From assembly GCA_045116995.1 (NCBI GenBank), contig JBGUMU010000034.1, positions 15,854 through 79,853 of the forward strand: a stretch of DNA of 64,000 nt. The letters run 5' to 3'. The translations under genes were made by a program, and so were the position numbers. Below the pieces are notes generated by a model. It was given only the letters and a program-made list of their open reading frames with translations, made no database searches and was not told the origin of the DNA. This document shows positions 11,093 to 28,814 of this stretch, in pieces (within the stretch, counting starts at the first letter, position 1; each line of letters begins with the position of its first letter). This DNA is from Bacilli bacterium. GTDB taxonomy: Bacteria > Bacillota_I > Bacilli_A > RFN20 > CAG-826.

Positions 11093-12193
11093 TTAGGCTT
11101 GAGCATCAAGTGCTGGATCAGAACTGATTAATTTAACGCCGTTAGGTGTTGGTGTTTGAGCACCATCAGTAGCGTTACCGAGTCTGAATTCAAGAGATAA
11201 TTTCCAGTCTCTTGTTAATTCGGCATATGTTGTTGATGTACAGGAGATATCCTCGCCTTCTAACCATAAACGGACAACGATTCTTGTGTAGCTTGTAACG
11301 CCAGCATCAATGTCTGTGGCCGCTTGAGCAGCAGCGTTTGGATTTGTAACGTTACCAAGGGCATGTTCGCCTGAAACAGCTTGTGGTGTAGCACTTGGAG
11401 CGTTGTAATATTTTGTACCTTCTTGATATGTACCAGCAGCTGGACTTTGTCCAAAGCGGTCTGTATAGTATCCGCTGACAGAAGTTGAAGCTGTAAATTC
11501 TGATGTATCAACTTCGGTTCCTTTTTGATTTTGGTTGAAGGCACCATTTAAGCCTAAAACTGTCTTTAATACGAGGCCGCTATCATCGGCTGCTGTATTA
11601 GCGGTTGTGCCAACTGCTAATAAGCCAACTCTCCATGCCAAGCCTTTATTTGTAACAGCTGTATAAGCAGTTCCTGCTTCGTTTTTGTATGTTAAGTTAC
11701 ATTTTGACATATAAAGCACTTGGTCATCAGCAGCAGAAGTAGCTTTAATGTAGAATGAATAGTCAACGTATGCATAGCAAACATTGCTTGTGCTCACAGT
11801 TGTGAAGCCATATGCGCTATTGAAATTGTTGTCATATGCAGATTTGCCTGCTGCGGCGTGATCTTGAGAAGTGCCTTCTGTATAGAGAGTGTAATCATCG
11901 GTTTTGGCATCGCCATCACCTTTAGCACTAGTTGTGTAACGGAAAGCTTTACCATCGACTGTAGAAGCTGGTTCAAGGACAGCAGATCTGCTTTGATTGA
12001 TTGATTCGTTGTAGTTTGCTTCTTGGTTTGTTTCAGCAATTAAGAGGTTGCTGGAAACCCTTGTTGTAACTGTCATACCATCAACTTTGACGGAATTGTT
12101 TGTAGAGAACCATGCAACTGTACCTGTGACAGAAGCGGCTGTGGATAATAATAGGACTGCGAGTGCAGGAACTATAATTTTTGTCTTTTTCAT
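11093..12193 (-). CDS. Secreted TasA/camelysin-like protein with SipW-cognate-type signal peptide; candidate major fibre subunit (paralogue P0)
   Basis: MKKTKIIVPALAVLLLSTAASVTGTVAWFSTNN can be compared with CalY GGGTFAFFSD and TasA GGGTWAAFND. Composition is rich in T/S/A/G/N/Y. C-terminus is VRLWLEGED...WKLSLEFRLG. The gene is monocistronic with its own leader and terminator. ATG 12193 is preferred over GTG 12229. Confidence 0.65.
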   Translation of the reverse strand: MKKTKIIVPALAVLLLSTAASVTGTVAWFSTNNSVKVDGMTVTTRVSSNLLIAETNQEANYNESINQSRSAVLEPASTVDGKAFRYTTSAKGDGDAKTDDYTLYTEGTSQDHAAAGKSAYDNNFNSAYGFTTVSTSNVCYAYVDYSFYIKATSAADDQVLYMSKCNLTYKNEAGTAYTAVTNKGLAWRVGLLAVGTTANTAADDSGLVLKTVLGLNGAFNQNQKGTEVDTSEFTASTSVSGYYTDRFGQSPAAGTYQEGTKYYNAPSATPQAVSGEHALGNVTNPNAAAQAATDIDAGVTSYTRIVVRLWLEGEDISCTSTTYAELTRDWKLSLEFRLGNATDGAQTPTPNGVKLISSDPALDAQA

Positions 12194-12214
12194 ATAATTT
12201 ATTAAACTCCTTAT

Positions 12215-12253
12215 AAACGACAAAATCACTCAACTTATCTTCTAAACTGAGTG
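12215..12253 (-). promoter_or_regulatory. Terminator-like hairpin in the 5' leader of P0 (possible attenuator or riboswitch expression platform)
   Basis: On the minus strand CACTCA-N15-TGAGTG is followed by ATTTTGTCGTTT. This sits immediately upstream of the AAGGAG RBS (12207-12212) and ATG 12193. Confidence 0.4.
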
Positions 12254-12632: not shown

Positions 12633-13001
12633 ATGAAAAAAATCAAATTACCTTTAATCATTGCTGGTCTAGTGTTGGATGTTGGTGTTACCATCTTCCT
12701 TTTTGTCATTAGCATCATGATATTAGTTAAGGTTATCCCGGCTGCTACTATCAACGAAGCTATTAATAACTCTCAGAACTGGCCATTAATTCATTACCTA
12801 TTACAAAATCCAACAGTTTATCTCGTTGCGTTTGTCATTCCATTATTTGTTCTCTTGGCATTGAATGTTATTGGCTTAATTATTTACGTCAAGAAAACAA
12901 GTGGTGCCAAACCAGCACAACTCGATGATCTCTCTGAAGAACAAAAAGAAGCTCTCAGACAAGAACTTCTCAAAGATCTCCAAGGCGAGAAAAAAGAATA
13001 A
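12633..13001 (+). CDS. Small membrane protein (3 TM) with charged C-terminal tail
   Basis: MKKIKLPLIIAGLVLDVGVTIFLFVISIMILV... with C-terminal LSEEQKEALRQELLKDLQGEKKE. ATG 12633 is preferred over the upstream TTG. Confidence 0.6.
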   Translation: MKKIKLPLIIAGLVLDVGVTIFLFVISIMILVKVIPAATINEAINNSQNWPLIHYLLQNPTVYLVAFVIPLFVLLALNVIGLIIYVKKTSGAKPAQLDDLSEEQKEALRQELLKDLQGEKKE

Positions 13002-13027: not shown

Positions 13028-13111
13028 TTTAGTTTCAAGAATTTTATTTTTAATTAAAAATATAAAAAAACTATTGCGCACTTGAAAAATACGTGATAAG
13101 TTATACTCGAG

Positions 13112-13180
13112 TAAAAAGCAAAACCGGAGCAATCCGGCGACGCAAAACTATAGGGTCTTAGTATAAGATAGCCAGCAACC
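13112..13180 (+). promoter_or_regulatory. Candidate c-di-GMP-I (GEMM-I) riboswitch aptamer
   Basis: AAAAAGCAAAACCGGAGCAATCCGGCGACGCAAAACTATAGGGTCTTAGTATAAGATAGCCAGCAACC. It contains GCAAAACC, a CCGGA-GCAA-TCCGG hairpin with a GNRA loop, GACGCAAAAC, a second hairpin (CTAT..CTTA-GTA-TAAG-ATAG), then AGCCAGCAACC. The order and wording resemble the GEMM-I consensus (GGCAAACC-hairpin(GAAA)-GGGACGCAAAGCC-hairpin-AGCxGGGxxACC). Not verified with a covariance model. Confidence 0.45.
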
Positions 13181-13214
13181 TCAATCGATTAACTTTGATT
13201 GAGGTTTTATATTT
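13178..13214 (+). terminator. Leader terminator 1 (overlaps the 3' end of the candidate aptamer)
   Basis: ACCTCAATC (13178-13186) pairs with GATTGAGGT (13197-13205), followed by TTTTATATTT. Confidence 0.6.
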
Positions 13215-13226
13215 CTTAGACAAGAT

Positions 13227-13295
13227 AGCCAGTTGCCTTAGGGGTAATGAAATCCCGCCATTGTAATGGATGATAGGCAACTGGCTTTTAATTTC
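13227..13295 (+). terminator. Leader hairpin 2: 12-bp closing stem around a branched insert, followed by a T-run
   Basis: AGCCAGTTGCCT (13227-13238) pairs perfectly with AGGCAACTGGCT (13275-13286). The interior contains GGG..CCC and CCATT..AATGG mini-hairpins. TTTTAATTT follows. Confidence 0.5.
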
Positions 13296-13354
13296 AAACC
13301 CCATTGGGACAAAATTTAGAAAACAACTACTAACAGGGAAACAAGAAAAAGACT

Positions 13355-14224
13355 ATGTACGATTATGTTTTGGTAAGAAGACGTAGAAGAAGAAAGATCG
13401 CTGCATTAGTCAGTCTCATCTGTTCAATCGGCGTGACTGCATTAATCATCGTTTCATTCCTCGGACAATACACCGGTACTTTTACCGTTTCTTTAACCAA
13501 CTCATCTGTTAGATTGTCACTATCAGAAACTCAAAGTTTCGCTAATCCAACATCTTATCTTCGTATCGATAAGCTCAACTTATTCGAAGAGTCTACGTAT
13601 GTTAACATCAAAGACGAAGGTTTAGATGATGAAACAAAGGCTTATGACTGTGGCCAACACGAAATCAAAATCAAAAATAAAGATGGTAGTGTAACCACAA
13701 AGCAAGTCCTTTCCTATTTCAAGTACACATTCTATGTGGGTAACTTAGGGAGCAAAGCGGCGCAGTACGACATGCAAATTAAATTGTTGGAATGCTCGCA
13801 ATCCACGGATGGTACTAATAGAACTTTGGATGATACTTTAAGAGTTATGATTTATGAAAACGATATCGATGATGATAACAATTCGGGGGTTCATAATGTA
13901 GACGTCTATGCTAAAGAGAACGCTATAGGAAACATTGATATCGATGATGGCAACACAACACGTGAATTTATTTCTTCTCGTCCTAGAAGAGATTATTTAG
14001 GACCACAAAAAGAAGATGAAGATCACAAATTAGCTATTTCTTTCGAGAAATTGGATCTTATTCACACATACAGCCGAGATGGTTTCTTCGCAGGCCAAAT
14101 CCGTAGATATACATTAGTCTCATGGTTAGAAGGAGAGGATAGAGATTCTCTCAACAAACAAGGTACCCCTGTTGGTGCTACTTTAAAATTAGGAGTTGAA
14201 ATAACTGCTTATGAAAATGAATAA
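13355..14224 (+). CDS. Membrane-anchored paralogue P1 of the TasA-like family (degenerate cleavage motif; candidate anchor or base subunit)
   Basis: N-terminal RRRRRRK plus a TM (IAALVSLICSIGVTALIIVSFL), then QYTGTFTVSLT in place of GT-x-A-W-Y/F. It shares the mid-protein LRVMI box and the C-terminal SWLEGEDRD...LKLGVEITA with the paralogues. Confidence 0.6.
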   Translation: MYDYVLVRRRRRRKIAALVSLICSIGVTALIIVSFLGQYTGTFTVSLTNSSVRLSLSETQSFANPTSYLRIDKLNLFEESTYVNIKDEGLDDETKAYDCGQHEIKIKNKDGSVTTKQVLSYFKYTFYVGNLGSKAAQYDMQIKLLECSQSTDGTNRTLDDTLRVMIYENDIDDDNNSGVHNVDVYAKENAIGNIDIDDGNTTREFISSRPRRDYLGPQKEDEDHKLAISFEKLDLIHTYSRDGFFAGQIRRYTLVSWLEGEDRDSLNKQGTPVGATLKLGVEITAYENE

Positions 14225-15173
14225 AATTATAATTCCTGCTGCAATGTTAGCAGTGGGTGTCGCGCTCGTAGGTTCTGTTTCTAGTACCTTAGCGTGGTAT
14301 CAATACTCAACAAAAGCACAAGCAGCGTATATTGGAACCAGCGCCGGAGTTTCTGAAAACTTACAGATTCAAAATAAAAATGGTGATTGGGTTTCAAATT
14401 TATCTTCCTCCGATATCGCAGATTTAATGGAAACTGGTGTTGGTTCTGAACTCACACCAATCTCTCCTGCTATCGAGGGTAATTTAGATGCTACTTCTGC
14501 TCTACCAAATGGCGGTTTCTATAATAGCGTTGAAACTGGCGTTGGTGGTGTTGAAACATATGGTGATCGTAGAGCAAATAATAAGAATTACGTTGAATTC
14601 ACTTTAAAGATTAGATATTTGAAAACAAATTATGCCAATCCAAGCGATCCTTATGGTTATGCAAATAAAGCTTTAAAATTAGTCGATTTAACTATTCTCG
14701 ATGGATCCACAAACGCAGATTTGTACAAAGCTGTTAGAGTTCATATCTCTTCCGCTTCAGGAAACTACTTATTTATGAAGGATTCTACCACCAATGAAAC
14801 AGTCGAAACCGCCACATATGGTAAACTTGATACCGATAGTCGTGATGGTTTAGACACAGGCTGGGCGTATGAATGGGAATCTTCCCCTGAAATCGTTTAT
14901 GGTAAAGATGGATCAATTCAAACAGCGTACAATTCAAACTATTCCGCTGGTTTAAATAAACAAATCGGTGAACTTCCTGCAAGTAATGAAAACGGTTTAG
15001 CCGTGAAAGTTACTATTTGGCTTGAAGGATGGCAAAAATTATCCGGTGTTCCAACCGGTAACGCTGAAGCATCATCTGGTAGTTCTGCTATGTGGGATCC
15101 AACCGTTTATGCCAACAAGCAATTTAAGGTTGGTATGAGATTCCAAGCTGATGATATTCAACAAAATCCATAA
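14211..15173 (+). CDS. SipW-type signal peptide protein, TasA-like paralogue P2
   Basis: MKMNKIIIPAAMLAVGVALVGSVSSTLAWYQYSTKAQA, then AVRVHIS, then TIWLEGWQ...FKVGMRFQA. Overlaps P1 by 14 nt. Confidence 0.65.
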   Translation: MKMNKIIIPAAMLAVGVALVGSVSSTLAWYQYSTKAQAAYIGTSAGVSENLQIQNKNGDWVSNLSSSDIADLMETGVGSELTPISPAIEGNLDATSALPNGGFYNSVETGVGGVETYGDRRANNKNYVEFTLKIRYLKTNYANPSDPYGYANKALKLVDLTILDGSTNADLYKAVRVHISSASGNYLFMKDSTTNETVETATYGKLDTDSRDGLDTGWAYEWESSPEIVYGKDGSIQTAYNSNYSAGLNKQIGELPASNENGLAVKVTIWLEGWQKLSGVPTGNAEASSGSSAMWDPTVYANKQFKVGMRFQADDIQQNP

Positions 15174-15212: not shown

Positions 15213-16370
15213 ATGATGAAATTCAACAAAGTTAAGTTTGTTGTAGCTGCTTTGTCCATGTGCTGCGGAGCCGCCCTCTTGGGTTCGATTTCAAGCACGA
15301 TTGCGTGGTATCAATTTACCACACGTGTATCTGCTGTTATCGTTGGTGCCTCGACAGGTGAGAAGAGCAATTTGAAAATAAGGATTAAAGGGACCAATAA
15401 TTGGAATTCCGACTTGACCTTTCATGATATCAATGAATATCTTGCGTCAGTCAACAAAGGCCAACAAATTACTCCAATTACTTCAGGATTTATGAATGCA
15501 GATGATCCTATTAAAAAAGATAATAACGATCAAATGATTTTTTACCAAAATCCAGGCGAAGAAGATATTGAAAGAGTACCTTATGATAGCCCTTCCTGGA
15601 GAAGAGCGGATGATTCCATGTATGTCTCAATTCCTTTAGAACTTTCATATATCCAAAAAGTCGAAGGAAGTGAACAATTCTTAGAAAAAGATGTGTATAT
15701 CTCTGATTTGCTAATTCAAGAAGATCGCAAAAATAGCATTAATGCTAAAAAAGATTTATCTGAAGCAATCCGTGTACACATCAGCACTTACCAAAGCAAC
15801 GACAAACAAAATACTGAGTTGAATAGATTAATCTCCAAAAATGGTGGAACCATACTGACCGAAGGCCATTTAGATATTGGTGGTGATGGTGATTTAGATG
15901 AATACATCGAAGGTCATCACGGACCAGACTATGGTTTTATTGATGAAGACGATACCGAAAGATACTATGTCACCTATGGTGAAGGTGTCCAAACAGCTTA
16001 CAGTAATCAATATGACGTTCAAGATAATTCATATAAGACACTTAGTGGTCAAACCATTAATGAAAAGGTTTATCCAACAGTAGTCAAATCTATTGATGAT
16101 TCCAACGTTTTAGATGAAGAAAGTTTTGAATATCAAAAAGAAGGCGAAACCGCCAAAACATCTAAATGTATTGGCAAGACAGTAGCCTTTGAAGGTGAGC
16201 AAAATGAAGCTTACCTCAATGTCGTTATGACGATTTGGGTTGAAGGATGGCAACCATTCCCTTCCCCAACGGCCGCTGATCCGAATGCAAAATCACCTAT
16301 CTGGAATGCATCGGACTATATTGGCTCAATGTTTGATGTCGGCATTGAATTTGCCGTACAACAAGACTAA
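15213..16370 (+). CDS. SipW-type signal peptide protein, TasA-like paralogue P3
   Basis: ..ALLGSISSTIAWYQFTTRVSA, then AIRVHIS, then TIWVEGWQ...FDVGIEFAV. Confidence 0.65.
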   Translation: MMKFNKVKFVVAALSMCCGAALLGSISSTIAWYQFTTRVSAVIVGASTGEKSNLKIRIKGTNNWNSDLTFHDINEYLASVNKGQQITPITSGFMNADDPIKKDNNDQMIFYQNPGEEDIERVPYDSPSWRRADDSMYVSIPLELSYIQKVEGSEQFLEKDVYISDLLIQEDRKNSINAKKDLSEAIRVHISTYQSNDKQNTELNRLISKNGGTILTEGHLDIGGDGDLDEYIEGHHGPDYGFIDEDDTERYYVTYGEGVQTAYSNQYDVQDNSYKTLSGQTINEKVYPTVVKSIDDSNVLDEESFEYQKEGETAKTSKCIGKTVAFEGEQNEAYLNVVMTIWVEGWQPFPSPTAADPNAKSPIWNASDYIGSMFDVGIEFAVQQD

Positions 16371-16488: not shown

Positions 16489-17697
16489 ATGAAAAAGACA
16501 ATTAATCCATTAAAACTAGTTATCGGTATTCTCGGCTTATCGTCAGTCGCTGCTTTAGTGGGCTCAATAAGTGGTACCGTTGCGTGGTACGCATATTCAA
16601 CGCGTGCTCTTATTTCATATACCGGCACTTCTGCGCAATCTAGTGCGCAACTTCAAATTGGCTTGAGAGCTACAGAACGTGTTCCGTTGCTTGACGAAGA
16701 TCTTTTAGTTGATGAAGTAATCGAAGAAAATGGTTATTTTTACTACTTCACACATCTCGGCTCAGGCGGTATGCCATCAAGTGTCATTAATAAATATCTC
16801 GGTGGTAGTGGCTTTGCTACAACTACATTGGAGCCTGTATCAACTTATAGTTATGATGGCAGTCAACCATTTGTTTTGAAAAACTGCCCAACAACAAACG
16901 AACCAGAAGAACGCTCAAATGCGCCAACATCAAAGTATGTTAAGATTCCATTTGCGTTCCGTGTGTTCAATACAATTTCAAACGGTCAAACCGTAACAAC
17001 ATCAGTCGCAAATAAAAACATTTATTTAAGCAATGCTGTCGCACAAGTTAGCAATGAAAAGCTTGGTATCGGTGAAGCAATCCGCTTGTTTGTTGATAGA
17101 ACTGATAATTTAAGCGACTATATTTTTAATCCAAACGCTGCAACTGATGGCTCAACCAAAACCGGTGGTGTCTTAGATCTTTCCGGTAATGGATATTTCG
17201 ATTATGACAACAATCCTTCTCATGGTGATATATATCTCCATGAATACATCTATGGCGATTATTCTTATAAGACTGGCTATGGATTAAATAGTGGCTACGT
17301 AAGTCAAGGTGCAAACGATAGCGACTATCATGACATTAACAAAACAGGTGTTGATACCACAGAAGAAGGATTTGATGGTACAACATTTACAGCTAAACAC
17401 CGTAGAGGAACAATGCATTTAGACTACAGCAATGGCGAAGAATTGGAAGACTACGTGACTTTAGGAACGGCTTCTTACCTTGGCAAGAGTTCTGTATTCC
17501 CAACCAAAACCAATGGTGTCCTCTCTGGTAATAACTTTGTTTGTAAAACAGCTGAATCAAACGTTTCCGAAAAGAATATTGGTTCATTTGACTTAACTGT
17601 TTATATAGAAGGCTGGGATCGTGCCACAATCAATCAACATGGTAATGAATATTTCAATCTCGGCTTAACATTCGAAATCGGCGCAACAAATAGCTAA
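16489..17697 (+). CDS. SipW-type signal peptide protein, TasA-like paralogue P4
   Basis: ..ALVGSISGTVAWYAYSTRALI, then AIRLFV, then TVYIEGWD...FNLGLTFEI. Confidence 0.65.
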   Translation: MKKTINPLKLVIGILGLSSVAALVGSISGTVAWYAYSTRALISYTGTSAQSSAQLQIGLRATERVPLLDEDLLVDEVIEENGYFYYFTHLGSGGMPSSVINKYLGGSGFATTTLEPVSTYSYDGSQPFVLKNCPTTNEPEERSNAPTSKYVKIPFAFRVFNTISNGQTVTTSVANKNIYLSNAVAQVSNEKLGIGEAIRLFVDRTDNLSDYIFNPNAATDGSTKTGGVLDLSGNGYFDYDNNPSHGDIYLHEYIYGDYSYKTGYGLNSGYVSQGANDSDYHDINKTGVDTTEEGFDGTTFTAKHRRGTMHLDYSNGEELEDYVTLGTASYLGKSSVFPTKTNGVLSGNNFVCKTAESNVSEKNIGSFDLTVYIEGWDRATINQHGNEYFNLGLTFEIGATNS

Positions 17698-20350: not shown

Positions 20351-22597
20351 ATGAAAAAAACGAGTAACAGCAATAAGCAGATCAATAGAGCCTACCATAG
20401 TGCGCTTAAGAAAATCATCAAAGGTTCCCACGAAAAGGAAATCTATGATGCTTTAAGCGCGGGTAAGAACTCTTATTTAAGACTTGATCGTTTAGCGTCT
20501 TCCTCGTTTGATAAGAGCTGGATTGAAGTGATTGAAGGCTGTATCTTCGATTTAGGCGAAATCATCGCTAATCCAAGACAACACACTAAAATCACTGGCA
20601 ACTTAACACCAGTTGAACTCGCTAAAAAGGTCACATCAGAATCTGTCCAACACTTAGCGAGCCATACTCAATATATTAAAGAAGTCGATGAATACGGAAA
20701 CGTCATCCCTTCTAAAATCTTATCCATGAGTAGTGATGATGATTTACATACTTATGAAAATAGATTTATCGCTACATTCGTAAGAAGATTATTCTTATTC
20801 ATTTCTAAACGTTATGAATTCGTTTCTAAATTCGCCGAATTACATAACGAAGAAATCCTATACTTTAAAAACAAATCCATCGTCGATGGAGCGGAAGTAG
20901 AAATTGAAACAAAGATTAAAGTCTCTTATAAGAACGAAAACGAAGAAACTAGAATCAACAGTGGCTACGTTGAAAGAATCAAACAAACTAGAGACTATAT
21001 TTCCTATTTCTATAACTCTCCATTTATGAAACAAATGAAGAATGAAAAGGATGTTAGAAATCCAATCGTTCAAACAAACATCATTAGAAAGAACCCTAAA
21101 TATAGACACTGCTACGAAGTGTATAGATTCATCGAAACCTATGACCGTTTAGGCGTGAACTATAAGGTCGATGAAAACTATTCCATGTTCAATAACGAAG
21201 AGTTGGCGGAACTCAATAGAACATTATTCGCTAACTACGTGACCTTAAGAGGTAATGATGGTAGTAGAGAAAAGAAAGTTAACACTAAAGTCTATAAGCC
21301 ACGTATCTTAACAAGCTTAGAAGATGAATCATTTATATATGGTCCATTACTTGAAGGTCCAATTTCTTTTGCACGTGTGGATGATGGTTATCAAGCCTAT
21401 TTAGATAGCAAGATTAAAAAAGACTTACCACTCCATCCAACTAAGAAAGAAAAAGAATATTACGAAGATGAATACGCTGCGAAGAAAGAAAATCAACAAG
21501 ATCAAAAAGCTAAAGCCGATTTATTAAAACGCAGACAAAAAGAAGTTAACGCTTTTGAAAAGAAAGTGAAGAATATCTTAGCAAAACGTGAAGAAGCGAG
21601 ATTAAAACTCATCGAAGCGGAAAAGAACGCCATTAGACAAGAAGAAGAAGACTTAGTCAACGCCATGAGAAGAGAAATCATTGCTGCTTCGCAAAAAGAC
21701 GTTACTGAGATTGTTAACGCTAATAATGGTGGCAAACCATCTAAGAAAGCCGCTAAAGAAGAAGTTAAGGAATATAATCCAACAGTTTCATTTAATGACG
21801 CTGCGGATGAGATTTGGCCACAATTAAATAATCCAACTCCATTACCAGTGGAAGAAAAGCCAGCACCTCAACCAGTTAAACCAGTAATAGTGGAACAACC
21901 AGTTCAAGCAGAATCTGCCCCTGAAGCTAAACCAGCGCCAGCACCTGCTAAAGTTGAAAAGGTCTACATACCAACTGTTAGCTTCAACGAAGCCGCAGAC
22001 GAAATCTGGCCACAACTTAATAATCCAACCCCAATGGCTAAACCAGTGGAAGAAGTTAAAGTGGCCCCAGCCCCTGCTAAGAAGGCTAAAGTGGTTAAAC
22101 CTGCTCCAGTCGTGGAACAAGCACCAACTGAACAAAAACCAGTGGAAGCTAAACCAGCCCCACAACCAGTCAGAGTGGAAAAGGTTTATGTCCCAACAGT
22201 GAGCTTCAATGATGCTGCTGATGAGATTTGGCCACAATTAAATAATCCAAAACCACTTCCTAAAGAAGAGCCTAAACCAGCGCCAGTGCAAAAGCCTGCT
22301 CCTAAAAAAACAGAACCAGCGCCAGCGCCTGCCAAGGAACCTGTTAAGGAAGAAGCAAAGCCAAAAGGCAAACCAATTAAAAAGTATTTCTATAGAAGTG
22401 ATGGTACAGTGGCCATCATCTATAAGAAAGATAAGGCTCATAAGGAAGAAAAACCTGCTCTTACAAAGGAAGAGCCTAAGAAAGAAGAACCTGTTAAGGA
22501 ACAGCCAAAGGCTGAACCTAAAAAGGAAGAAAAGAAAGAAAACAAACCACAAAATGTGGTGAAGAGTAAAAAGACCCGTAAGAAATTTAGAAAGTAA
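20351..22597 (+). CDS. McrC-position partner protein: N-terminal globular domain (DUF2357/McrC-N-like guess), coiled-coil, Pro/Ala/Lys-rich tail with three conserved 19-aa motifs
   Basis: 748 aa with no TM. TYENRFIATFVRRLFLF resembles the ENRF box I associate with McrC/DUF2357 partners (from memory). There is a K/E-rich coiled-coil around aa 380-460. PTVSFN(D/E)AADEIWPQLNNP occurs three times in a PAPxPxK-type linker. No PD-(D/E)xK nuclease motif is recognisable by eye. Confidence 0.5.
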   Translation: MKKTSNSNKQINRAYHSALKKIIKGSHEKEIYDALSAGKNSYLRLDRLASSSFDKSWIEVIEGCIFDLGEIIANPRQHTKITGNLTPVELAKKVTSESVQHLASHTQYIKEVDEYGNVIPSKILSMSSDDDLHTYENRFIATFVRRLFLFISKRYEFVSKFAELHNEEILYFKNKSIVDGAEVEIETKIKVSYKNENEETRINSGYVERIKQTRDYISYFYNSPFMKQMKNEKDVRNPIVQTNIIRKNPKYRHCYEVYRFIETYDRLGVNYKVDENYSMFNNEELAELNRTLFANYVTLRGNDGSREKKVNTKVYKPRILTSLEDESFIYGPLLEGPISFARVDDGYQAYLDSKIKKDLPLHPTKKEKEYYEDEYAAKKENQQDQKAKADLLKRRQKEVNAFEKKVKNILAKREEARLKLIEAEKNAIRQEEEDLVNAMRREIIAASQKDVTEIVNANNGGKPSKKAAKEEVKEYNPTVSFNDAADEIWPQLNNPTPLPVEEKPAPQPVKPVIVEQPVQAESAPEAKPAPAPAKVEKVYIPTVSFNEAADEIWPQLNNPTPMAKPVEEVKVAPAPAKKAKVVKPAPVVEQAPTEQKPVEAKPAPQPVRVEKVYVPTVSFNDAADEIWPQLNNPKPLPKEEPKPAPVQKPAPKKTEPAPAPAKEPVKEEAKPKGKPIKKYFYRSDGTVAIIYKKDKAHKEEKPALTKEEPKKEEPVKEQPKAEPKKEEKKENKPQNVVKSKKTRKKFRK
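21779..22249 (+). repeat. Three in-frame copies of a 57-nt unit encoding PTVSFN(D/E)AADEIWPQLNNP
   Basis: Copies at 21779-21835, 21971-22027 and 22193-22249. The peptide is identical except for one D/E, while the DNA differs at many synonymous sites. Confidence 0.9.
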
Positions 22598-22600: not shown

Positions 22601-23479
22601 ATGAGCGAAGTAGTTAAAGAAAAACGCGTCAAGAAACCAAAAAGTAAGGCCAGAAAAATCGTGGAATGGATCCTTACTGGTATTTTCCTCGTGATTTTCG
22701 GTGTCGTCATGGCCGCTCAAATTGATGGTATGGTCCATAAGAATGATCACTATGGTCAACAAATTAGATTTGGCTATGGTACCTTCATGGTTAAGACCGA
22801 TTCTATGAAACCAGTGTACGGCATTGATACTGCTTTAATTACTTACTTAGAAGACGCTGATAAAATCTACGACCGTTTCCAAAAGGGTGAAACTGTCGAT
22901 ATCACATTCGTCCATGTTCCAGTGGCTAATAACGAATATACCTCTCCTAGAGATAATCCAGAATTAACCGTTAGAACTAATGCTAGTAGTGATAAGCAAG
23001 TGGACGGCATCCCTATGACCCATAGAGTGAGAGAAATCCACATCAATGAAAGTGTCGCTAAAGGTAAAGGTCGTTACACATTCATCACCGCTGGTATCAA
23101 TACCAGAAGTGAATGGATGGGTTGGCAAGAAGGTCAACCAGATATGGTTATTAACCAATATCAAGCGATCACAGAAAAAGAACTATTAGGTAGAGTGGTG
23201 GTTAACTCTCCATTCTTAGGTGGTGTCTTCTCATTTGTGAGTTCTGTATTTGGTTTATTAATCTTATTACTCATCCCAGCATTTTATTTAGTCATCACTA
23301 GTGTGATTGATATATTTAAGGCTTATAAAGAGCCTGAAGAAGCTAAAGAAGGAGCAGGAGCCACACCAAATAGTGGTGGTACCGTTACTCTTTCCGAAGC
23401 GGACAAAAAGAGACTTAAAGAGCAACTATTAGAAGAAATGATTGCCAAGAAGAAAGGAGAAAGCAATGAAAACAAGTAG
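22601..23479 (+). CDS. sipW: SipW-like (S26B, ER/archaeal-type) signal peptidase I with an enlarged extracytoplasmic domain
   Basis: N-terminal TM. VKTDSMKPVY can be compared with SipW SGSMEP (Ser codon 22802-22804). QKGETVDITF, then MTHRVREI compared with VTHRIVDI (catalytic His). A C-terminal second TM (FGLLILLLIPAFYLVITSVIDIF) as in SipW. The GDNN Asp box reads AGINT. Confidence 0.75.
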   Translation: MSEVVKEKRVKKPKSKARKIVEWILTGIFLVIFGVVMAAQIDGMVHKNDHYGQQIRFGYGTFMVKTDSMKPVYGIDTALITYLEDADKIYDRFQKGETVDITFVHVPVANNEYTSPRDNPELTVRTNASSDKQVDGIPMTHRVREIHINESVAKGKGRYTFITAGINTRSEWMGWQEGQPDMVINQYQAITEKELLGRVVVNSPFLGGVFSFVSSVFGLLILLLIPAFYLVITSVIDIFKAYKEPEEAKEGAGATPNSGGTVTLSEADKKRLKEQLLEEMIAKKKGESNENK

Positions 23480-25007
23480 AGGTCGATTAACTGCAGTTAT
23501 CATTACTGGTATCCTTCTCATCGTCGCCTTTGTCCTCGCGGGTATGGCGATGATTGGTCATGTCTTCGGTGATAACACCCCATTAGCGAATATCATGAAC
23601 GCTTCAGCCATTGGTATGACTGTTTTATTCGTTAGTAGTGTTTATCTTTTAGTTAGTAATCTTTCCATGATTAAGACTTTACAAGATGATAACGAATATA
23701 ACTTAGGTGTTAGAAGTGCCTTTAATAACATGTATGCCTTCCAAAAACGTGTGGAAGTCCTTTCTAGATTAAATAAAATCACCAAGAGACAAGAACACAT
23801 TATCGCCTTTACATTCTCCTCTCTTGTTGTTTCTCAAAACGTTAATAGAAACCATGAAATCTATTTAATCAACAATCACATCGCTAACTTCTTAAATGAT
23901 TTACCAACAAAGATTAACGCTAAGAAGAGAGACTTTGTTTATGCCTTCTCTCGTGGTTCTTTCTTAATCTACTGTGCAAAACAAAATGAACAATCCATTC
24001 AAAACATCTGCGAAATCATCGCTAAAGATATTTATGACTTTGGTGAACAAAACTGCCGTCATATCTGGGTCCAACCATTCTTCGGTGTCACCCGTGTCTA
24101 TGATAGTGAACTTTTAACTCACCAAATTGAAAACGCATTATTAGCTAGAGATAATTCTGAAAGAAACTTTGAAACAGTCACTTATTATCAAGAAACATTC
24201 CGTAAAAGTGTGGCCGCTAACGACATTGAAGAATTAACTCAAGCTTTAGAAAATAAAGAATTCGTTGTCTACTATCAACCAAAGTTTGACTTAGCTAAAA
24301 GACAATTTATTTCTTCAGAAGCTTTAATTAGATGGAACTCCAAGAAGTACGGCTTATTAGCGCCTACTAAGTTCTTAAATAAAGCCGAAGCTATTGGTTT
24401 AATCCATGATATTGATATCTATGTCTTAAGACAAGTTTGTGAAGATTTAAATGAACTTATTAGAAGAGGTAGAAGAGTCTTACCAGTCTCCGTTAACTTC
24501 TCCTTATATGAATTCTATAGTGCGAACTTCTTAGATACCATCATGGGTATCTTAGATGAATTCCATGTTCCAACAAATTTAATTGAAATTGAAATTACAG
24601 AAGCGACATCACAAGCTAACCAATTCTTATCCATCTCCATTATTAAGAAACTTAAAGAAAACGGTATTCGAGTCTTAATGGATGACTTTGGTATTGGTTT
24701 CTCTAACGTCGGTAACTTAAAGAAGATTCCATTCGACGTTGTTAAGATTGATAAATCATTTATTGATGGCATTGTTAACGACACTAAATCACGTGAAATC
24801 GTGAGATTCTTAATTGGTCTTTGTAAGATCAACGGTATGGAAGTCGTTGCCGAAGGTGTTGATAACAAAGAACAAGTTGAAATATTAAAGAAGGCGAAGT
24901 GCGATACAATTCAAGGTTTCTATTATTCTGAAGCTCTTGAAAAGAAAGCTTTCGAAAGATTCTTAGATAATAACCCATTTGAAAAGAAGGAGGGCGTTAA
25001 AGCATGA
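23466..25007 (+). CDS. Membrane-bound EAL-domain c-di-GMP phosphodiesterase with degenerate GGDEF-like middle domain
   Basis: Two N-terminal TMs. The EAL set appears complete: YYQPKF, SEALIRW, SVNFS, EIEITE, MDDFGIGFSN, VKIDKSF, VAEGVD, IQGFYYS. The GGDEF position reads SRGSF. ATG 23466 (AAAGGAG RBS) overlaps the sipW end by 14 nt. Confidence 0.85.
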   Translation: MKTSRGRLTAVIITGILLIVAFVLAGMAMIGHVFGDNTPLANIMNASAIGMTVLFVSSVYLLVSNLSMIKTLQDDNEYNLGVRSAFNNMYAFQKRVEVLSRLNKITKRQEHIIAFTFSSLVVSQNVNRNHEIYLINNHIANFLNDLPTKINAKKRDFVYAFSRGSFLIYCAKQNEQSIQNICEIIAKDIYDFGEQNCRHIWVQPFFGVTRVYDSELLTHQIENALLARDNSERNFETVTYYQETFRKSVAANDIEELTQALENKEFVVYYQPKFDLAKRQFISSEALIRWNSKKYGLLAPTKFLNKAEAIGLIHDIDIYVLRQVCEDLNELIRRGRRVLPVSVNFSLYEFYSANFLDTIMGILDEFHVPTNLIEIEITEATSQANQFLSISIIKKLKENGIRVLMDDFGIGFSNVGNLKKIPFDVVKIDKSFIDGIVNDTKSREIVRFLIGLCKINGMEVVAEGVDNKEQVEILKKAKCDTIQGFYYSEALEKKAFERFLDNNPFEKKEGVKA

Positions 25008-25747
25008 TCATGATTATTGGTAGCCAACATGATGATATCCTCTATTTCGAAAGTGTTATCACTAACAAAAGAGAAGAACTCATCATGGGCAAATTCAAAG
25101 TGACCATTGGTACCATCTTTAACCAAGCGGTCATGTTAGTGGATCAAGTTAAATCTAACTACTTAAGTAGCGCTCTTACTTTATATTTGATTGAAAAATA
25201 CTTCGTCATCCTTGTTTTAGTGGTGGGCCGTTGTGTGGCTTACACGAAAGACTTAAAACCATTAGACATCGTTATCTCTAAGCATGTCGTCTTAGGGGAC
25301 GTTGACCAAGTTAATGAAGATAACGTTAAATACGGACAAATCCCAGGCTTTGAACAAGTCTTTGATGCCTCTGAAGACGTTGTCTCCTATATTGAAAGTG
25401 CTTTTGAAAAGAGAACATACTCTGTCTTTAAAGAAGCTAACTTCATTTCCACATCTGTGGACTACCATAAGAAAGAACAAATCTATGATATCCATGAATT
25501 TGATCATATCTTAGGCTATGACACTAATGTGGTCTTTGACACCAATACCGGTGGTGTTGCTGTCGCTTGTAACTTAACTAAAGTGCCTTTCGTCTCGATT
25601 AAAGTCGTGGAAAGATACTTAGAAAAGAATAGTGATGTCAATACATACTTAAAAGCGATGAAAGAATATGTGAATATCGGTAAAGCTGTTGTTACCTGTA
25701 TCGGTGATATTGGCCGTAACGAAATCATCACAGAAGGAGGTAAGTAA
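25004..25747 (+). CDS. MTA/SAH-nucleosidase (PNP_UDP_1) homologue with degenerate active site
   Basis: Collinear with E. coli MtnN: MIMIIGSQHDD vs MKIGIIGAMEEE; LKPLDIVIS vs LKVGDIVVS; KYGQIPGFEQVF vs EYGQLPGCPAGF; VPFVSIKVVERY vs VPFVVVRAISDV. The catalytic or ligand positions (E12, SGIGK, TGSAGG, EME, SD197) read D, QVKSN, VGRCVA, DTN, VE. The ATGA overlap with the upstream stop is at 25004-25007. Confidence 0.6.
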   Translation: MIMIIGSQHDDILYFESVITNKREELIMGKFKVTIGTIFNQAVMLVDQVKSNYLSSALTLYLIEKYFVILVLVVGRCVAYTKDLKPLDIVISKHVVLGDVDQVNEDNVKYGQIPGFEQVFDASEDVVSYIESAFEKRTYSVFKEANFISTSVDYHKKEQIYDIHEFDHILGYDTNVVFDTNTGGVAVACNLTKVPFVSIKVVERYLEKNSDVNTYLKAMKEYVNIGKAVVTCIGDIGRNEIITEGGK

Positions 25748-25748
25748 T

Positions 25749-28700
25749 ATGGCATTCTATAATAGAAACCGTTCCATTAAAATCTTCTTCCGTTTCGTCA
25801 CAATTTTCCCAATTGTGTTCCTTAACGTTTTAGTCATTGTGATGACACTTTTAACATTCTTCTATGCAAGAACTGATAACTTCGCTTTCTTCTTAGCGAT
25901 TCTCATCTTCGGTGGTGTAATGATTATCTTATATATCGTTCAAACCGTCTACATCATGACGCAGTTTAGAAAGGTCTTTATTAATGGTCTTTATGGTGTC
26001 ACTGTTTCTAACTTTGAAAATATCGCTAGAAATGAAAATGACTTCCGTGAATATCCAAGTAAGCAATACATTGAAATCAACGCTTTAAACGAACACGTTG
26101 ATACATTAAGAAAGAGCCTATTAGGCGCGACCATTATTCCAAGCAACAATGACTTTGATGATATTGAATTAGATTATATCGATAAGGAAAAGAACCTTAT
26201 TACTTTTGAATCTTTCAAAAGAGAATTAGAAAACATCATCTTCAAATCCCAAAACTATCGTAACATCATCATCGAAACATATTATGAATTTGAAGAAGAA
26301 GGCTTAACCAAAAAGAATATCGACTATGTCCTTAAAGTCTTAAAAGATAACTTCTTTGATTATGAAAGCCCATTATATGTCCTTGGTGAAGACAATAAGA
26401 GTGTTTATCTCTACTTACCAAGAATTGATTCTTTAAGCAAAATTAGAGAACAATTAGAAACATGTATGAGAAGTGCTTCTATTTCTAAACGTTTAACTGA
26501 AGGTATTACTCCATTAACCGCACATTTCTCTGTGGTCTGTTACCCATATAGTGACGTTCCAGAATTAATCCCAGACTTACGTTATGCAAAACGTCAAGGT
26601 AACGATATTTTCTTCTATTTACCAAACCGTTTAAATACTTTAAAGAACAATGCGATCTTAAGATATTCCACAAACCTTAACTCTATGAGTAAAATCATCG
26701 CTCCATTATCCACGATGAGGTTTGGTTCTGCTTACACTAAGGAAAATACTAAGATTATCCAAGAGACAATTAAAACCACCGCCCAATACTTTGGTATCAA
26801 CTATGCAGGTATCATCGCTTTAGATGCGGTTAATAAACGTTATGTCATCGCTTATCAAGCAAATGATGACGAAATCAACCCATTAAGTCACGATGGCACT
26901 GTGAACCAGGCTTTAATTAGCATTATGGACGAAACTAAGGACGATAATGGTTCTTACTACTTCTCAATCAGGAATCACGCAAATAACGCCCTAGGACGTC
27001 ATTTAGACCGCATTGGCCTTGAAAGTGGTTTCTATTACGTCATTAAGAGTAATGATGTAGTGCAAGGTGTCATTTATTTCTTTAATAAAAATAAAGAGCT
27101 TAAGTTCGATTCTTATATCCAAGAATCCATGTTAATGCTTTGTACAAGAATTAGCTCCTTCTTAATTAGTGAGAAGAGAGACGTTGAAATCGAAAGCTCA
27201 TTTGATGAAATCGACGCCATTCTTAAAGTTGCTGACTTCTCGACATACCGTGTCAGTGCGGATGACTTCACTTTATTAAATGGTTCTCAAACCATGAAGA
27301 ACTTATTCCCTGAGATTAAATATGGTGAAAAGTGCTATAAGACAATGTATGGCTTAGATGCCCCTTGTAAAGACTGCCCACTTCTCACTGGTAATAAGAA
27401 AATGGTGAAGTATGGACGTGATAACTATGAGACATCATTGTTATTATCTGACCACCATAACATTTATCGTGTTTTATCCATTAAGAATATCTACTCCCAT
27501 AAATCACATGGTCGTTATAACCAAGATCTTCTCATCAACAGTTTCCATACCCTTATTGAAAACTTAGAAGATATCTATGCGATGAATGGTAAAGGTTACT
27601 TATTATTACTTAGAATCGATAACTTAGAACAACTCGTTGAAGAACATGGTTCTGAAGGCACAATTACAATTCTTCGTGACTTCTCTAAACGTGTTAAAAA
27701 AGCCCACCGTGGTTTAGAAAATATCTATTACTACACTAACCAATTCTTAGCGATGCTATTCTACGAATATGGTCAAACTGACATCTTAGATGAATGTGAA
27801 AAGATCTACGCTATCGCTAAAAACGTTGATAAGTCTGCTGACTATGTTTTAGATATCACCTTCTTACCAGTCAGTTATCCTCGTGTTTATCCAAATGCCA
27901 CAAGCTTAATTAAACAAGCCGATGTCTTCTCCACAAGAGGTCATTATGATGTAAATAAAGACTTCATCTATTTCGATGAAAGTAACTATTCAAGAAGTGC
28001 TAATAGAGAAGAATACATTCTTTCTATTATTAAGAAAGCCTTCAGTGATAAGACATACGAAATCAACTTACAACCAATGGTTAATGCTGGTGATAAGCAA
28101 ATCTATGGTGCGGAATTACTTTTACGTATTTCTGATGATTATCGTAATGTCGCAATGCGTACTGATGAAGTCGTTAATGTCGCGGCGAAACACAATCAAA
28201 TTGGTATTATTTCTCACGCCCTTCTTGATTTCACCGCTTCCTTATATAAGGAATATGGTGCGATGTTCTTCTCATCTTTAGGCTTTAGAAGATTTGGTCT
28301 TAATACTGACTATTCCTTCTTTACCGATAAGAACTTCGCTAAAGATATTAAAAAGTATATTGAAAGTCTTAAACTTCCAAAGCACTTCATCGCTTTCGAA
28401 ATTCCTGAAAACGATGTCTCTACCCATATCGATGAATTTAAGCAAATTGGTAAAGTGCTTAGAGATCTCAATATCGTCTTAGTGTGTGACCAATATACTG
28501 GCCGTTATATCTCCGTTGAAATCTTAAAAGAAATCGGTTTCGATGAAGTGAAGATTTCTCGTAACCTTGTCAATCACATCGATAGTGATAACCAACGCTA
28601 TAACGCCTTAAAAGCTTTATTACAATTAATCCGTCGTTTCAACATGAAAGCTTCTATCGTCGGTGTTGAAAACATTGACCAATACTTACTCATTAAAGAA

Positions 28701-28814
28701 GCTGATGCTGATGTCTTACTACAAGGCTTCTACTTCTTCCGTCCATTAGAAAAGCAAGCTTTAATTGAAGCCTTAAGAGGAACGAATAAATATAAGAAAG
28801 CTGATGAAGAATAA
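25749..28814 (+). CDS. Large membrane-anchored signalling protein: two degenerate GGDEF-like domains, a GAF-like segment, a Cys motif, and a C-terminal degenerate EAL domain (probable c-di-GMP receptor)
   Basis: Two N-terminal TMs. The first GGDEF-like block has GEDNK in the signature position. The second is YLLLLRIDNLEQLVEEHGSEGTITILRDFSKRV...YYTNQFLAMLF. CYKTMYGLDAPCKDCP is C-x11-C-x2-C. The EAL-like end reads LQPMV, GAELLLR, CDQYTGRY (for DDFGTGYS), VKISR (for KID), VGVEN (for EGVE), LQGFYF. ATG 25749 (GGAGG RBS) is preferred over the 25689 extension. Confidence 0.7.
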   Translation: MAFYNRNRSIKIFFRFVTIFPIVFLNVLVIVMTLLTFFYARTDNFAFFLAILIFGGVMIILYIVQTVYIMTQFRKVFINGLYGVTVSNFENIARNENDFREYPSKQYIEINALNEHVDTLRKSLLGATIIPSNNDFDDIELDYIDKEKNLITFESFKRELENIIFKSQNYRNIIIETYYEFEEEGLTKKNIDYVLKVLKDNFFDYESPLYVLGEDNKSVYLYLPRIDSLSKIREQLETCMRSASISKRLTEGITPLTAHFSVVCYPYSDVPELIPDLRYAKRQGNDIFFYLPNRLNTLKNNAILRYSTNLNSMSKIIAPLSTMRFGSAYTKENTKIIQETIKTTAQYFGINYAGIIALDAVNKRYVIAYQANDDEINPLSHDGTVNQALISIMDETKDDNGSYYFSIRNHANNALGRHLDRIGLESGFYYVIKSNDVVQGVIYFFNKNKELKFDSYIQESMLMLCTRISSFLISEKRDVEIESSFDEIDAILKVADFSTYRVSADDFTLLNGSQTMKNLFPEIKYGEKCYKTMYGLDAPCKDCPLLTGNKKMVKYGRDNYETSLLLSDHHNIYRVLSIKNIYSHKSHGRYNQDLLINSFHTLIENLEDIYAMNGKGYLLLLRIDNLEQLVEEHGSEGTITILRDFSKRVKKAHRGLENIYYYTNQFLAMLFYEYGQTDILDECEKIYAIAKNVDKSADYVLDITFLPVSYPRVYPNATSLIKQADVFSTRGHYDVNKDFIYFDESNYSRSANREEYILSIIKKAFSDKTYEINLQPMVNAGDKQIYGAELLLRISDDYRNVAMRTDEVVNVAAKHNQIGIISHALLDFTASLYKEYGAMFFSSLGFRRFGLNTDYSFFTDKNFAKDIKKYIESLKLPKHFIAFEIPENDVSTHIDEFKQIGKVLRDLNIVLVCDQYTGRYISVEILKEIGFDEVKISRNLVNHIDSDNQRYNALKALLQLIRRFNMKASIVGVENIDQYLLIKEADADVLLQGFYFFRPLEKQALIEALRGTNKYKKADEE

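Follow-up and report, generated by a model that had tools for sequence, protein, structure and literature searches.

A locus of uncultured Bacilli predicted to combine a c-di-GMP-I riboswitch, paralogous secreted subunits, a SipW-type signal peptidase and a membrane-anchored McrB-type GTPase

The window analyzed here is a 64,000-nucleotide stretch of contig JBGUMU010000034.1 (positions 15,854 to 79,853) from the assembly GCA_045116995.1 of a Bacilli bacterium. Between its positions 11093 and 28814 lies a locus of six paralogous genes, P0 to P5, accompanied by a putative SipW-type signal peptidase, a predicted McrB-type GTPase with an McrC-like partner and a set of proteins related to cyclic di-GMP (c-di-GMP) turnover, behind a leader that resembles a c-di-GMP-I riboswitch. 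Systems combining a McrB with a transmembrane (TM) segment and coiled coil, a coiled-coil McrC and a signal peptidase received the name “CoCoPALM” in a survey of the relatives of McrBC (Bell et al., 2024; eLife 13:RP94800, PMC11090510). An initial annotation had mapped the locus as a divergent P0 beside 11 same-strand genes interrupted by a single 118-nt gap, and the open reading frames (ORFs) are arranged as described. The plus-strand run of 11 genes spans 13355-28814, with P0, the sixth paralogue, upstream and divergent. Spacing within the run is -38 to +39 nt, the sole exception being the 118 nt between P3 and P4. No plus-strand terminator inside 13355-28814 was convincing, the terminator-like matches there being not clearly above the expectation from shuffled sequence. 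The features are as follows, in window coordinates.

11093..12193, minus strand: P0, divergent sixth paralogue, outside riboswitch control (the ORF extends to 12229)
12633..13001, plus strand: small two-TM protein between P0 and the riboswitch (sequence, hydropathy)
13107..13240, plus strand: predicted c-di-GMP-I riboswitch aptamer (Rfam RF01051)
13229..13296, plus strand: predicted expression platform, a terminator (minimum free energy (MFE) fold, comparison with other loci)
13305..13314, plus strand: leader motif TGGGACAAAA (conserved TGGGACAWW)
13355..14224, plus strand: P1, with an Arg-rich N-terminus and one TM segment, candidate uncleaved membrane anchor or base subunit
14211..15173, plus strand: P2, predicted secreted β-sandwich subunit with a TasA-like signal peptide (AlphaFold2 (AF2) model)
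15213..16370, plus strand: P3, paralogous subunit (hidden Markov model (HMM) of P2 orthologues)
16489..17697, plus strand: P4, paralogous subunit (HMM of P2 orthologues)
17697..18815, plus strand: P5, paralogous subunit (HMM of P2 orthologues, hhalign)
18817..20340, plus strand: predicted membrane-anchored McrB-type GTPase, CoCoPALM McrB homologue, 507 aa (AAA_5, McrB 6hz4)
20351..22597, plus strand: McrC-like partner, 748 aa, with a DUF2357-type N-domain (DUF2357 in orthologues)
22601..23479, plus strand: probable divergent SipW/archaeal-type signal peptidase I, 292 aa (orthologue links)
23442..25007, plus strand: EAL1, two-TM protein with an apparently active EAL domain (EAL 226 bits)
25004..25747, plus strand: pseudoenzyme of the methylthioadenosine/S-adenosylhomocysteine (MTA/SAH) nucleosidase fold, the PNP-like protein (PNP_UDP_1 35 bits)
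25749..28814, plus strand: EAL2, 1021 aa, two-TM protein with a degenerate EAL domain (EAL 109 bits; ORF from 25689, probable ATG at 25749)

How far is this arrangement conserved? The sample comprised two context look-ups and 80 GTDB-representative loci, compared by tblastn and blastp, and the comparison of the array is carried by ~65 species-level loci from metagenome-assembled genomes (MAGs). Every Bacilli locus with enough flanking sequence carries, on one strand, P1- to P5-like genes, the GTPase, its partner, the SipW-type peptidase, EAL1, the PNP-like gene and EAL2. The host MAGs come from the rumen or gut, are uncultured and are labeled “Bacilli bacterium” or Erysipelotrichaceae, including Candidatus Enterosoma. 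The view that the locus is a single conserved multi-gene system, and not a group of chance neighbors, therefore holds, the array being syntenic in every long Bacilli locus examined. The related expectation that the AAA+ pair and SipW are co-inherited with the paralogues is borne out in all long Bacilli loci but not throughout the Acholeplasmataceae, where the partner is missing from five of the eight loci examined. One MAG, RGIG8901 (JAGAYY01), carries two copies of the system (L009 and L050), with GTPases 91% and 67% identical to that of the window; paralogous CoCoPALM-type loci can therefore coexist.

The core recurs in eight Acholeplasmataceae loci as a P1-like anchor, two subunits with a W-x-EGWD box, SipW and the TM-GTPase. 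The subunits there have GTTTFAWFTITN-type N-termini, one to three SipW-type peptidases are encoded per locus, and the positional orthologue of P1 (FYGQSAGNFVMSVD) opens every locus. Small proteins, three to five of them, are added to this core; they have SFAWF N-termini and a motif, PGDxFxFxIxIxNxG, that resembles one of TasA. One of these small proteins gives a faint match to Peptidase_M73 (E 0.04), and a profile of the “PGDxFxF..N.G” proteins found nothing significant either against PDB or, by hhalign, against TasA. The Acholeplasmataceae loci close with giant proteins of 1100-2400 aa that carry a signal peptide (L075 13632-20648, L079 13682-20971, L081 13619-20923, L077 16688-21340 and L070 8515-11913) and for which the window has no equivalent. 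The single giant protein scanned, that of L075, has no Pfam domain; a role as tip adhesins is possible.

The six paralogues had been taken as related, and profile comparisons indicate that they truly form one family. An HMM built from P2 orthologues only retrieved P3 (1.6e-59), P4 (9e-25) and P5 (1e-10), and hhalign ties P0 and P1 to the other paralogue families at 94-99% probability: P0 pairs with the P2 family at 98.6% (E 1.2e-15), and P1 pairs at 95.6% with the P2 family and at 93.8% with P0. The P4 and P5 families pair at 99.9%, and the window paralogues match two large Acholeplasmataceae subunits at 96-98%. Shared motifs occur at both ends of the proteins. An N-terminal T-x-A-W-[YF] motif is present in 250 of 262 family members and a C-terminal W-x-E-G-W box in 210 of the same 262. 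In the window these read SSTIAWYQF and WVEGWQ in P3, SGTVAWYAY and YIEGWD in P4, and VATIAWYAS and YLEGWD in P5, while the N-terminus of P0, whose orthologues in other loci are 34-85% identical, reads ...VTGTVAWFSTN. Around the predicted cleavage site, TLA|WY in P2, the sequence is near-fixed (250/262) as G-S-[VI]-S-[GS]-T-[VLI]-A | W-[YF]-Q-Y-S-T-[RK]-A-x-A-A-[YF]. P1 differs from this pattern in having an Arg-rich N-terminus and a TM segment at residues 13-40, without the A-W-[YF] site. An exhaustive profile search found 2528 clusters of the subunit family (50% identity, E <= 1e-3). Members of 600-850 aa (P0427, P0438, P0455 and P0477) match the profile in two or three stretches, which suggests tandem-domain or fused subunits.

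P0 probably starts at the ATG at 12193, downstream of an AAGGAG ribosome-binding site. A sigma-70-like promoter (TTGACT, 18 nt, TATACT) is present in the region 12354-12194 on the minus strand, and the leader of ~120 nt holds an 11-bp hairpin followed by ATTTTGTCGT just ahead of the ribosome-binding site. This leader matches no Rfam family, and an E-value-mode Rfam scan upstream of P0 found no riboswitch. The small two-TM gene at 12633-13001, overlooked in the initial annotation, is conserved, 41 ORFs of the loci retrieved matching it by blastp, and has its own terminator-like hairpin at 13009-13022; Pfam gave nothing informative for its product.

What kind of protein are the subunits? The AF2 model of P2 (pLDDT (predicted local distance difference test) 84, predicted template modeling score (pTM) 0.83) is all-β, with residues 1-28 disordered and the first strands (31-50) of low confidence. 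Foldseek searches of PDB and BFVD with this model gave no match at E <= 0.001 (best PDB E 0.013, TasA not listed); the weak top matches include jelly-roll or β-sandwich proteins, for example GH11 xylanase, concanavalin A and picornavirus capsid proteins. The paralogue family profile found nothing at E <= 10 among PDB sequences, Pfam and NCBIfam assigned no family to any of the six paralogues, and none of the six matched Peptidase_M73 in Pfam at E up to 0.1. Among the matches listed, 119 of 120 P2 homologues likewise carry no precomputed Pfam domain. Five of the paralogues had been described as having TasA/CalY-style N-termini, and this probably stands for the signal peptide but not for the mature domain. 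When the family was compared by hhalign with B. subtilis TasA, a comparison taken as a lead and not as a test, only the signal peptide (residues 1-30) aligned, MKMNK.KIIIPA.ALA.G.ALVGSVSGTVAWY of the family pairing with MGMKKKLSLGVASAALGLALVGGGTWAAF of TasA. TasA homology of the mature domain was rejected because the Pfam, PDB-profile and Foldseek searches found nothing significant. We conclude that the likeness to TasA is confined to the signal peptide and that the mature domain represents a new β-sandwich family.

A signal peptidase that could process these proteins is encoded in the same run, its gene beginning 3 nt after that of the partner. Alone, the window protein matches only the C-terminal part of the NCBIfam SipW model NF046067 (31 bits), and neither PDB nor Pfam searches found a family for it. 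It aligns along its length with L077:9190-9831 (E 8e-4), TDSM pairing with SDSM and THRV with THRV, and this protein scores 63.9 bits on NF046067 and 50.7 bits on TIGR02228, while sister peptidases of these loci reach 64.7 and 54.8 bits on TIGR02228 (cut-off 51.85). The Acholeplasmataceae peptidases are recovered at 1e-22 to 4e-6, and that of L070 at 3e-41, by an HMM built on 57 orthologues of the window type. Membership in the SipW/archaeal type is therefore transitive, since the window protein matches weakly alone and its orthologues link the groups. The Ser of the SM motif is kept in 55 of the 57 orthologues and the THR His in ~52, alongside insertions and TM segments at the N- and C-termini. 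The 292-aa protein is probably a divergent, insertion-bearing and active SipW-type signal peptidase, and the earlier description of it as SipW-like is upheld by these orthologue links and the retained Ser and His. In one Acholeplasmataceae locus, a protein at the peptidase position upstream of the GTPase (L081 9268-9939) lacks the SM Ser and HR His motifs, and may be a degenerate non-catalytic SipW paralogue.

The ATPase-like gene of the locus is, on its sequence, assigned as a McrB-type GTPase with a TM segment, in line with the membrane-anchored McrB-family NTPase first proposed. It consists of ~50 residues, a hydrophobic TM segment (49-89), a charged heptad-like stretch (EIEKDEL...EKNKILALK) that is conserved across clades and forms an apparent coiled coil, and an AAA+ core. 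The core scores 24.1 bits on AAA_5 (Pfam cut-off 22) and matches E. coli McrB 6hz4 at E 6e-4 as a single sequence and 8.5e-4 as a profile, with Walker B DEMNLA aligned over DEINRA and GTANNDDS over GLMNTADRS. Walker A GISGTGKT, Walker B DE[ML]NLA and GTAN[NK]DDST are invariant in 82 of 82 orthologues. The N-x-D-D signature fits “NxD + second D”; HMMER pairs it gaplessly with N-T-A-D, so that it can also be read as NxxD. Of all genes in the locus, the GTPase evolves most slowly (59-95% identity among Bacilli MAGs, 42-49% to Acholeplasmataceae), and a search with it returned at least 8000 matches.

The partner gene begins 10 nt after the GTPase gene. Its product has no direct Pfam match, including to DUF2357, the N-domain of McrC; this domain is found in the orthologues L071:6316-8175 (45.6 bits) and P0318 (24.9 bits; cut-off 23.3), the latter 56% identical to the window partner. 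Hydropathy gives no TM segment in the partner, and AF2 predicts a long helix at residues 372-457 that would form a long coiled coil (~372-457), followed by a Pro/Lys-rich tail. The three peptide motifs reported earlier are present in this tail as copies of PTVSFN[DE]AADEIWPQLNNP starting at residues 475, 539 and 613. The three AADEIWPQL repeats of the tail are confined to close relatives (11/75 loci), and the Acholeplasmataceae partners end in a Lys/Glu-rich coiled coil. No nuclease domain was detected in 51 partner homologues, and VEIETK, considered as a conserved nuclease ExK motif, was rejected as it is not kept in Acholeplasmataceae. The partner is best described, via its orthologues, as a predicted McrC N-domain protein with no detectable nuclease, and its designation as McrC-like is thereby sustained.

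Such a pair could be a type IV restriction-like or anti-phage defense module that resides by chance in a surface-protein operon. The GTPase core does match the PADLOC candidate defense model PDC-M26A (E 4e-40) as well as McrB, and the partner contributes an McrC N-terminal domain. Defense genes are usually patchy, however, and here the pair is fixed between P5 and SipW in all long Bacilli loci, adjoins SipW and subunits in Acholeplasmataceae, and is highly conserved (59-95%). Where McrB has its DNA-binding domain, the GTPase has a TM segment and coiled coil, and the partner has neither a nuclease domain nor a conserved D...ExK motif. The genes flanking the locus are housekeeping genes (IspD, desulfoferrodoxin, TrkH, FeoB, SHMT and EF-G), which places the locus in the core chromosome and not in a mobile island. 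Insertion of McrBC as a defense island was rejected on the fixed synteny, the TM anchor and the undetected nuclease, and a defense role is regarded as highly improbable. In the reading preferred here the pair would instead serve the surface proteins encoded around it.

The leader ahead of P1 had been likened to a c-di-GMP-I riboswitch. It matches RF01051 with 48 bits over 13107-13183, and with 56.5 bits (E 1.6e-10) over 13107-13240 in a more permissive run, both above the gathering score of 35; by this covariance match the leader is identified as a c-di-GMP-I riboswitch, as supposed. In the 56.5-bit alignment, the hairpin at 13177-13206 forms a 51-nt insertion in the second aptamer stem. This hairpin (30 nt, GC-poor, followed by a U-run) was considered as a terminator and is better explained as an intra-aptamer insertion. 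The sequence GATAGCCAGCAACC (13168-13181) duplicates the true aptamer 3' strand GATAGCCAGTTGCC, and the equally long aptamer match of L012 (128 nt) may reflect the same insertion. In the MFE fold, the aptamer 3' strand AGCCAGUUGCC (13229-13240) doubles as the 5' arm of a long terminator hairpin, which closes with GGCAACUGGCU and is followed by UUUUAAUUU. The competing hairpin and U-tract, with covarying arms, also occur in L023, L012, L001, L046 and L071. Since the terminator 5' arm is the aptamer 3' strand, ligand binding should block termination, which predicts a transcriptional ON switch. The P1 orthologue has the riboswitch upstream of it in all six Bacilli loci that were scanned and in one of the six from Acholeplasmataceae (L001, L012, L023, L046, L059 and L062, with L071 from Acholeplasmataceae), and the orthologous leaders score 52-71 bits on RF01051.

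Further along the leader, 3' of the riboswitch terminator, 24 of 53 loci have TGGGACAWW at a distance of 36-75 nt upstream of P1's start, and L037 adds a 25th match, placed at the called ORF start. The window holds three matches against 0.5 expected by chance, and the motif could be a protein- or RNA-binding site. The P0 leader holds GTCCCA at ~12294-12299, the reverse complement of the first six bases of TGGGACAWW. Related loci contain extra c-di-GMP riboswitches (L001 20142-20218, L062 764-839 and L071 8868-8942). That of L001 sits after EAL2, ahead of 272-aa and 932-aa ORFs, and in L071 (Acholeplasmataceae) the riboswitch ahead of the small TasA-like genes is a c-di-GMP-I-GGC variant (RF03167, 59.1 bits).

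The last three genes of the run would act on, or sense, nucleotides. EAL1 scores 226 bits on Pfam EAL and retains the EAL, N, ExxE, DDFG, K, EGVD and Q motifs, the roles of these residues (EAL, N, ExxE, DD, K, E of EGVE, Q) being well established for EAL domains. The active-looking EAL of the first description is thus confirmed at the level of catalytic motifs, and EAL1 is apparently an active c-di-GMP phosphodiesterase. EAL2 scores 109 bits on the same model; relative to EAL1, DDFG has become CDQY and EGVD has become VGVE, so that the general-base Glu is now Val. No other Pfam domain was found in EAL2 at E up to 10. The 1021-aa protein had been called a degenerate GGDEF/EAL protein, and its degenerate EAL domain stands while the GGDEF domain does not, Pfam finding no GGDEF match in either EAL1 or EAL2; a GGDEF domain in these proteins was rejected accordingly. 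EAL2 probably binds c-di-GMP without cleaving it and is a candidate receptor. The PNP-like protein (PNP_UDP_1, 35 bits), compared with the MTA/SAH nucleosidase 4qez, has Arg at the position of Asp197 (SD to ER) and Asn at that of Glu174 (EME to DTN; E. coli numbering). It is considered a pseudoenzyme because the catalytic Asp197 and the ribose-binding Glu174 are replaced, which agrees with the pseudo-nucleosidase originally named.

The set of EAL1, the PNP-like gene and EAL2 keeps its synteny across the whole Bacilli clade. Could the locus then be chiefly a module of c-di-GMP signaling and turnover, with co-transcribed surface genes and a GTPase engaged in division or membrane remodeling? The GTPase N-terminus of CoCoPALM systems was called FtsB-like (Bell et al., 2024; PMC11090510), a likeness that would suit such a role. 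In the Acholeplasmataceae versions the EAL and PNP-like genes are missing from the downstream side, EAL genes being found upstream in some of them, and this absence marks the module as a clade-specific add-on. In loci lacking the EAL module, the GTPase nevertheless remains together with the subunits and SipW, its N-terminus has no match to DivIC/FtsB in Pfam at E up to 0.1, and no division genes are nearby. This explanation is judged improbable.

Taken together, these features are most readily read as a c-di-GMP-induced, SipW-processed surface filament or adhesin system, with P1 as membrane anchor, the GTPase as an engine of assembly or gating on the cytoplasmic face, and the EAL proteins providing feedback and sensing. 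This overall picture is held to be reasonably probable; each of its steps, taken individually, deserves less confidence. At high c-di-GMP, the ligand would bind the aptamer and keep AGCCAGUUGCC within it, blocking the terminator and allowing transcription of the predicted 11-gene operon. P2 to P5, together with the separately transcribed P0, would be exported by Sec via their TasA-like signal peptides, which are strongly conserved. The SipW-type peptidase would then cut at T-x-A|W-[YF], exposing a strand-like N-terminus, WYQYST[RK]A.AA[YF]. The β-sandwich subunits may polymerize or stack on the cell surface, probably by strand complementation, and P1 would anchor the structure in the membrane, a role proposed because its cleavage motif is absent and its TM segment is kept. 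The GTPase, having lost the DNA-binding domain and gained a TM segment and coiled coil, could form a membrane-tethered ring engaged by the McrC-like partner, with GTP hydrolysis on the cytoplasmic side driving or gating subunit export, cleavage, assembly or anchoring. EAL1 would degrade c-di-GMP and so provide negative feedback. EAL2, and possibly also the PNP-like protein, may act as nucleotide sensors that couple the machine to c-di-GMP post-translationally.

Several observations weigh against this picture. The operon status of the 11-gene run has gene spacing and terminator absence as its only basis, and polymerization of the subunits is a prediction. The mature domain has no detectable tie to TasA, to AbpA-type subunits or to any solved pilin, and the NCBIfam SipW-cognate signal model found no match in the paralogues. 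The signal-peptide alignment with TasA has an E-value of 2e-4 for a single comparison and a probability of only 47%, and is a lead, not a test. The AF2 model of the partner is poor overall (pLDDT 58), Foldseek found nothing with it, and the partner is missing from five of the eight Acholeplasmataceae loci. To our knowledge, TasA-type fibers assemble extracellularly without an NTPase, which leaves the need for a GTPase here unexplained.

Some of the same observations would suit a different explanation, in which the paralogues are variable SipW-processed surface proteins or adhesins, forming a coat or displayed singly, and the GTPase is a regulator, or a checkpoint for quality control and secretion, and not a motor of assembly; P1 would be membrane-bound and the other paralogues released or loosely attached. 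The subunits diverge quickly, P2 to P4 being mostly 21-45% identical across the same loci in which the GTPase is 59-95% identical. Such very fast divergence, together with a number of paralogues that varies, is typical of variable surface antigens, and adhesin-like proteins of 1100-2400 aa accompany the Acholeplasmataceae loci; the missing structural or sequence tie to a known pilin or TasA points the same way. Fast subunits beside a conserved GTPase are also the pattern expected for exposed subunits with a conserved motor. Against free surface proteins, the near-invariant strand-like N-terminus and the C-box point to a shared assembly interface, and a dedicated peptidase with several paralogues and an uncleaved anchor mirrors the logic of major and minor subunits. 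Pilus assembly was moreover inferred from genomic context in the CoCoPALM paragraph of the census, which is counted as independent support for a filament (Bell et al., 2024; PMC11090510). The surface-protein explanation is the main rival and is considered unlikely.

The filament or adhesin system favored above admits a bolder version, in which the locus represents a new NTPase-dependent class of surface filament. A membrane-tethered ring of the McrB-type GTPase and a McrC “shaft” without a nuclease, taken over from DNA translocation, would mechanically power the assembly, anchoring or retraction of β-sandwich subunits that are processed by signal peptidase I and joined by strand complementation, with gating by c-di-GMP at two levels. 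This version is tentative, and on balance doubtful. If it is true, energy-coupled pili would have a fourth principle, in addition to those of type IV, conjugative/type IV-secretion and chaperone-usher systems, and Bacilli without a wall or with reduced genomes (Acholeplasmataceae and rumen/gut lineages) would use the ring-driven filament to adhere or to move. Even in the more general form, if the proposed function is true, a McrBC motor core would have been exapted as the engine or gate of a bacterial surface appendage, a previously uncharacterized way of building or controlling fibers. The system is widespread; it occurs in Bacilli of the rumen and gut that are abundant but uncultured, and in wall-less Acholeplasmataceae, about whose means of adhesion hardly anything is known. 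The predicted ON riboswitch, the apparently active EAL and the probable dead-EAL receptor would make a compact and testable circuit from second messenger to surface, in very small genomes.

Elsewhere in the window, a 157-aa cytoplasmic protein without a Pfam family is encoded directly downstream of P0 on the same strand (10532-11005, minus strand). Two large proteins carry C-terminal Peptidase_S41 domains (38538-40379, 613 aa; 48116-50113, 665 aa), and the region 30262-31629 encodes a Lactamase_B protein with a bacterial surface Ig-like domain. The 613-aa and 665-aa S41 proteins and the Lactamase_B/Ig-like protein are probably other envelope or surface proteins of the window.

Among known systems, the matrix-fiber operons (Bacillus tapA-sipW-tasA, B. 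cereus sipW-tasA-calY and C. perfringens sipW-bsaA) resemble the locus in encoding a SipW-type peptidase beside its substrates, in signal peptides of the form ALVG..GT.A|aromatic, and in β-rich secreted subunits, several of them paralogous. They differ in that the mature subunits here have no detectable homology or fold match to TasA/Peptidase_M73, and in that operons of the tapA-sipW-tasA type are not known to contain an NTPase, riboswitch or EAL genes and comprise 3-4 genes, compared with 12-13 here.

Clostridioides difficile offers a regulatory parallel, its pilA1 type IV pili and its CD2831/CD3246 adhesins being controlled by c-di-GMP riboswitches. Here too a c-di-GMP riboswitch, predicted to be an ON switch, would drive a surface appendage or adhesin operon of a Firmicute. 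The C. difficile systems depend on sortase or on the machinery of type IV pili (PilB ATPase, prepilin peptidase); unlike them, the locus combines a class I aptamer with EAL feedback of its own, a peptidase of the SipW type and a McrB-type GTPase. Type IV pili and archaeal type IV filaments resemble the locus in having multiple paralogous subunits whose hydrophobic N-terminal region is conserved, a peptidase dedicated to them and, as the component that evolves most slowly, a conserved hexameric NTPase. The locus departs from type IV pili in having no PilB/PilT-family ATPase, PilC platform or prepilin peptidase. Its peptidase is of the signal peptidase I type, acting at the outer face, and the predicted subunit lacks a long N-terminal helix. 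No Pfam match to type IV pilus families (PilB-type ATPase, PilC, prepilin peptidase) or to sortase was found in the genes of 8652-31629, as the initial annotation had stated for sortase and for the pilus ATPase and prepilin peptidase. Canonical McrBC (E. coli, 6hz4) shares the AAA+ GTPase core with its DExNxA Walker B and N..D signature, as well as the McrC N-terminal domain of the partner. Compared with it, the locus has a TM segment and coiled coil in place of the N-terminal DNA-binding domain, no detected PD-(D/E)xK nuclease in the partner, and a context of surface proteins, not defense. The locus is thus not a member of the TasA family, canonical McrBC, or type IV or sortase pili.

The closest relative is CoCoPALM, and the claim that the system was undescribed falls with the naming of this class (Bell et al., 2024; PMC11090510). 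As in the CoCoPALM description, a McrB-like GTPase with an N-terminal TM segment and coiled coil has next to it a homologue of McrC (DUF2357) that contains a coiled coil and shows no evident nuclease, and a signal-peptidase-family gene adjoins them, syntenic in all long loci. CoCoPALM GTPases are reported to carry an NxD variant, after which E or a second D usually comes (Bell et al., 2024; PMC11090510), and the N-x-D-D found here is compatible with this clade. On the published paragraph, the locus fits four of five features, with the NxD motif and FtsB homology compatible and not proven. The pilus-assembly role was predicted there from context, in one paragraph and without characterization, a fuller analysis being deferred to a later publication (Bell et al., 2024; PMC11090510). 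Searches of later literature on CoCoPALM, on Acholeplasma with SipW and on McrB with TasA found no follow-up. The CoCoPALM text does not mention a subunit family, a TM-anchored paralogue or a c-di-GMP riboswitch, nor EAL1, EAL2, the pseudo-nucleosidase or a distribution in rumen/gut Bacilli or Acholeplasmataceae. Measured against that text, the c-di-GMP module, the subunit family and the anchor paralogue appear new, and the system is an elaborated variant of a class already flagged in the literature. The locus now supplies concrete parts and coordinates for the CoCoPALM class, which, as far as that source goes, had hitherto been only a name.

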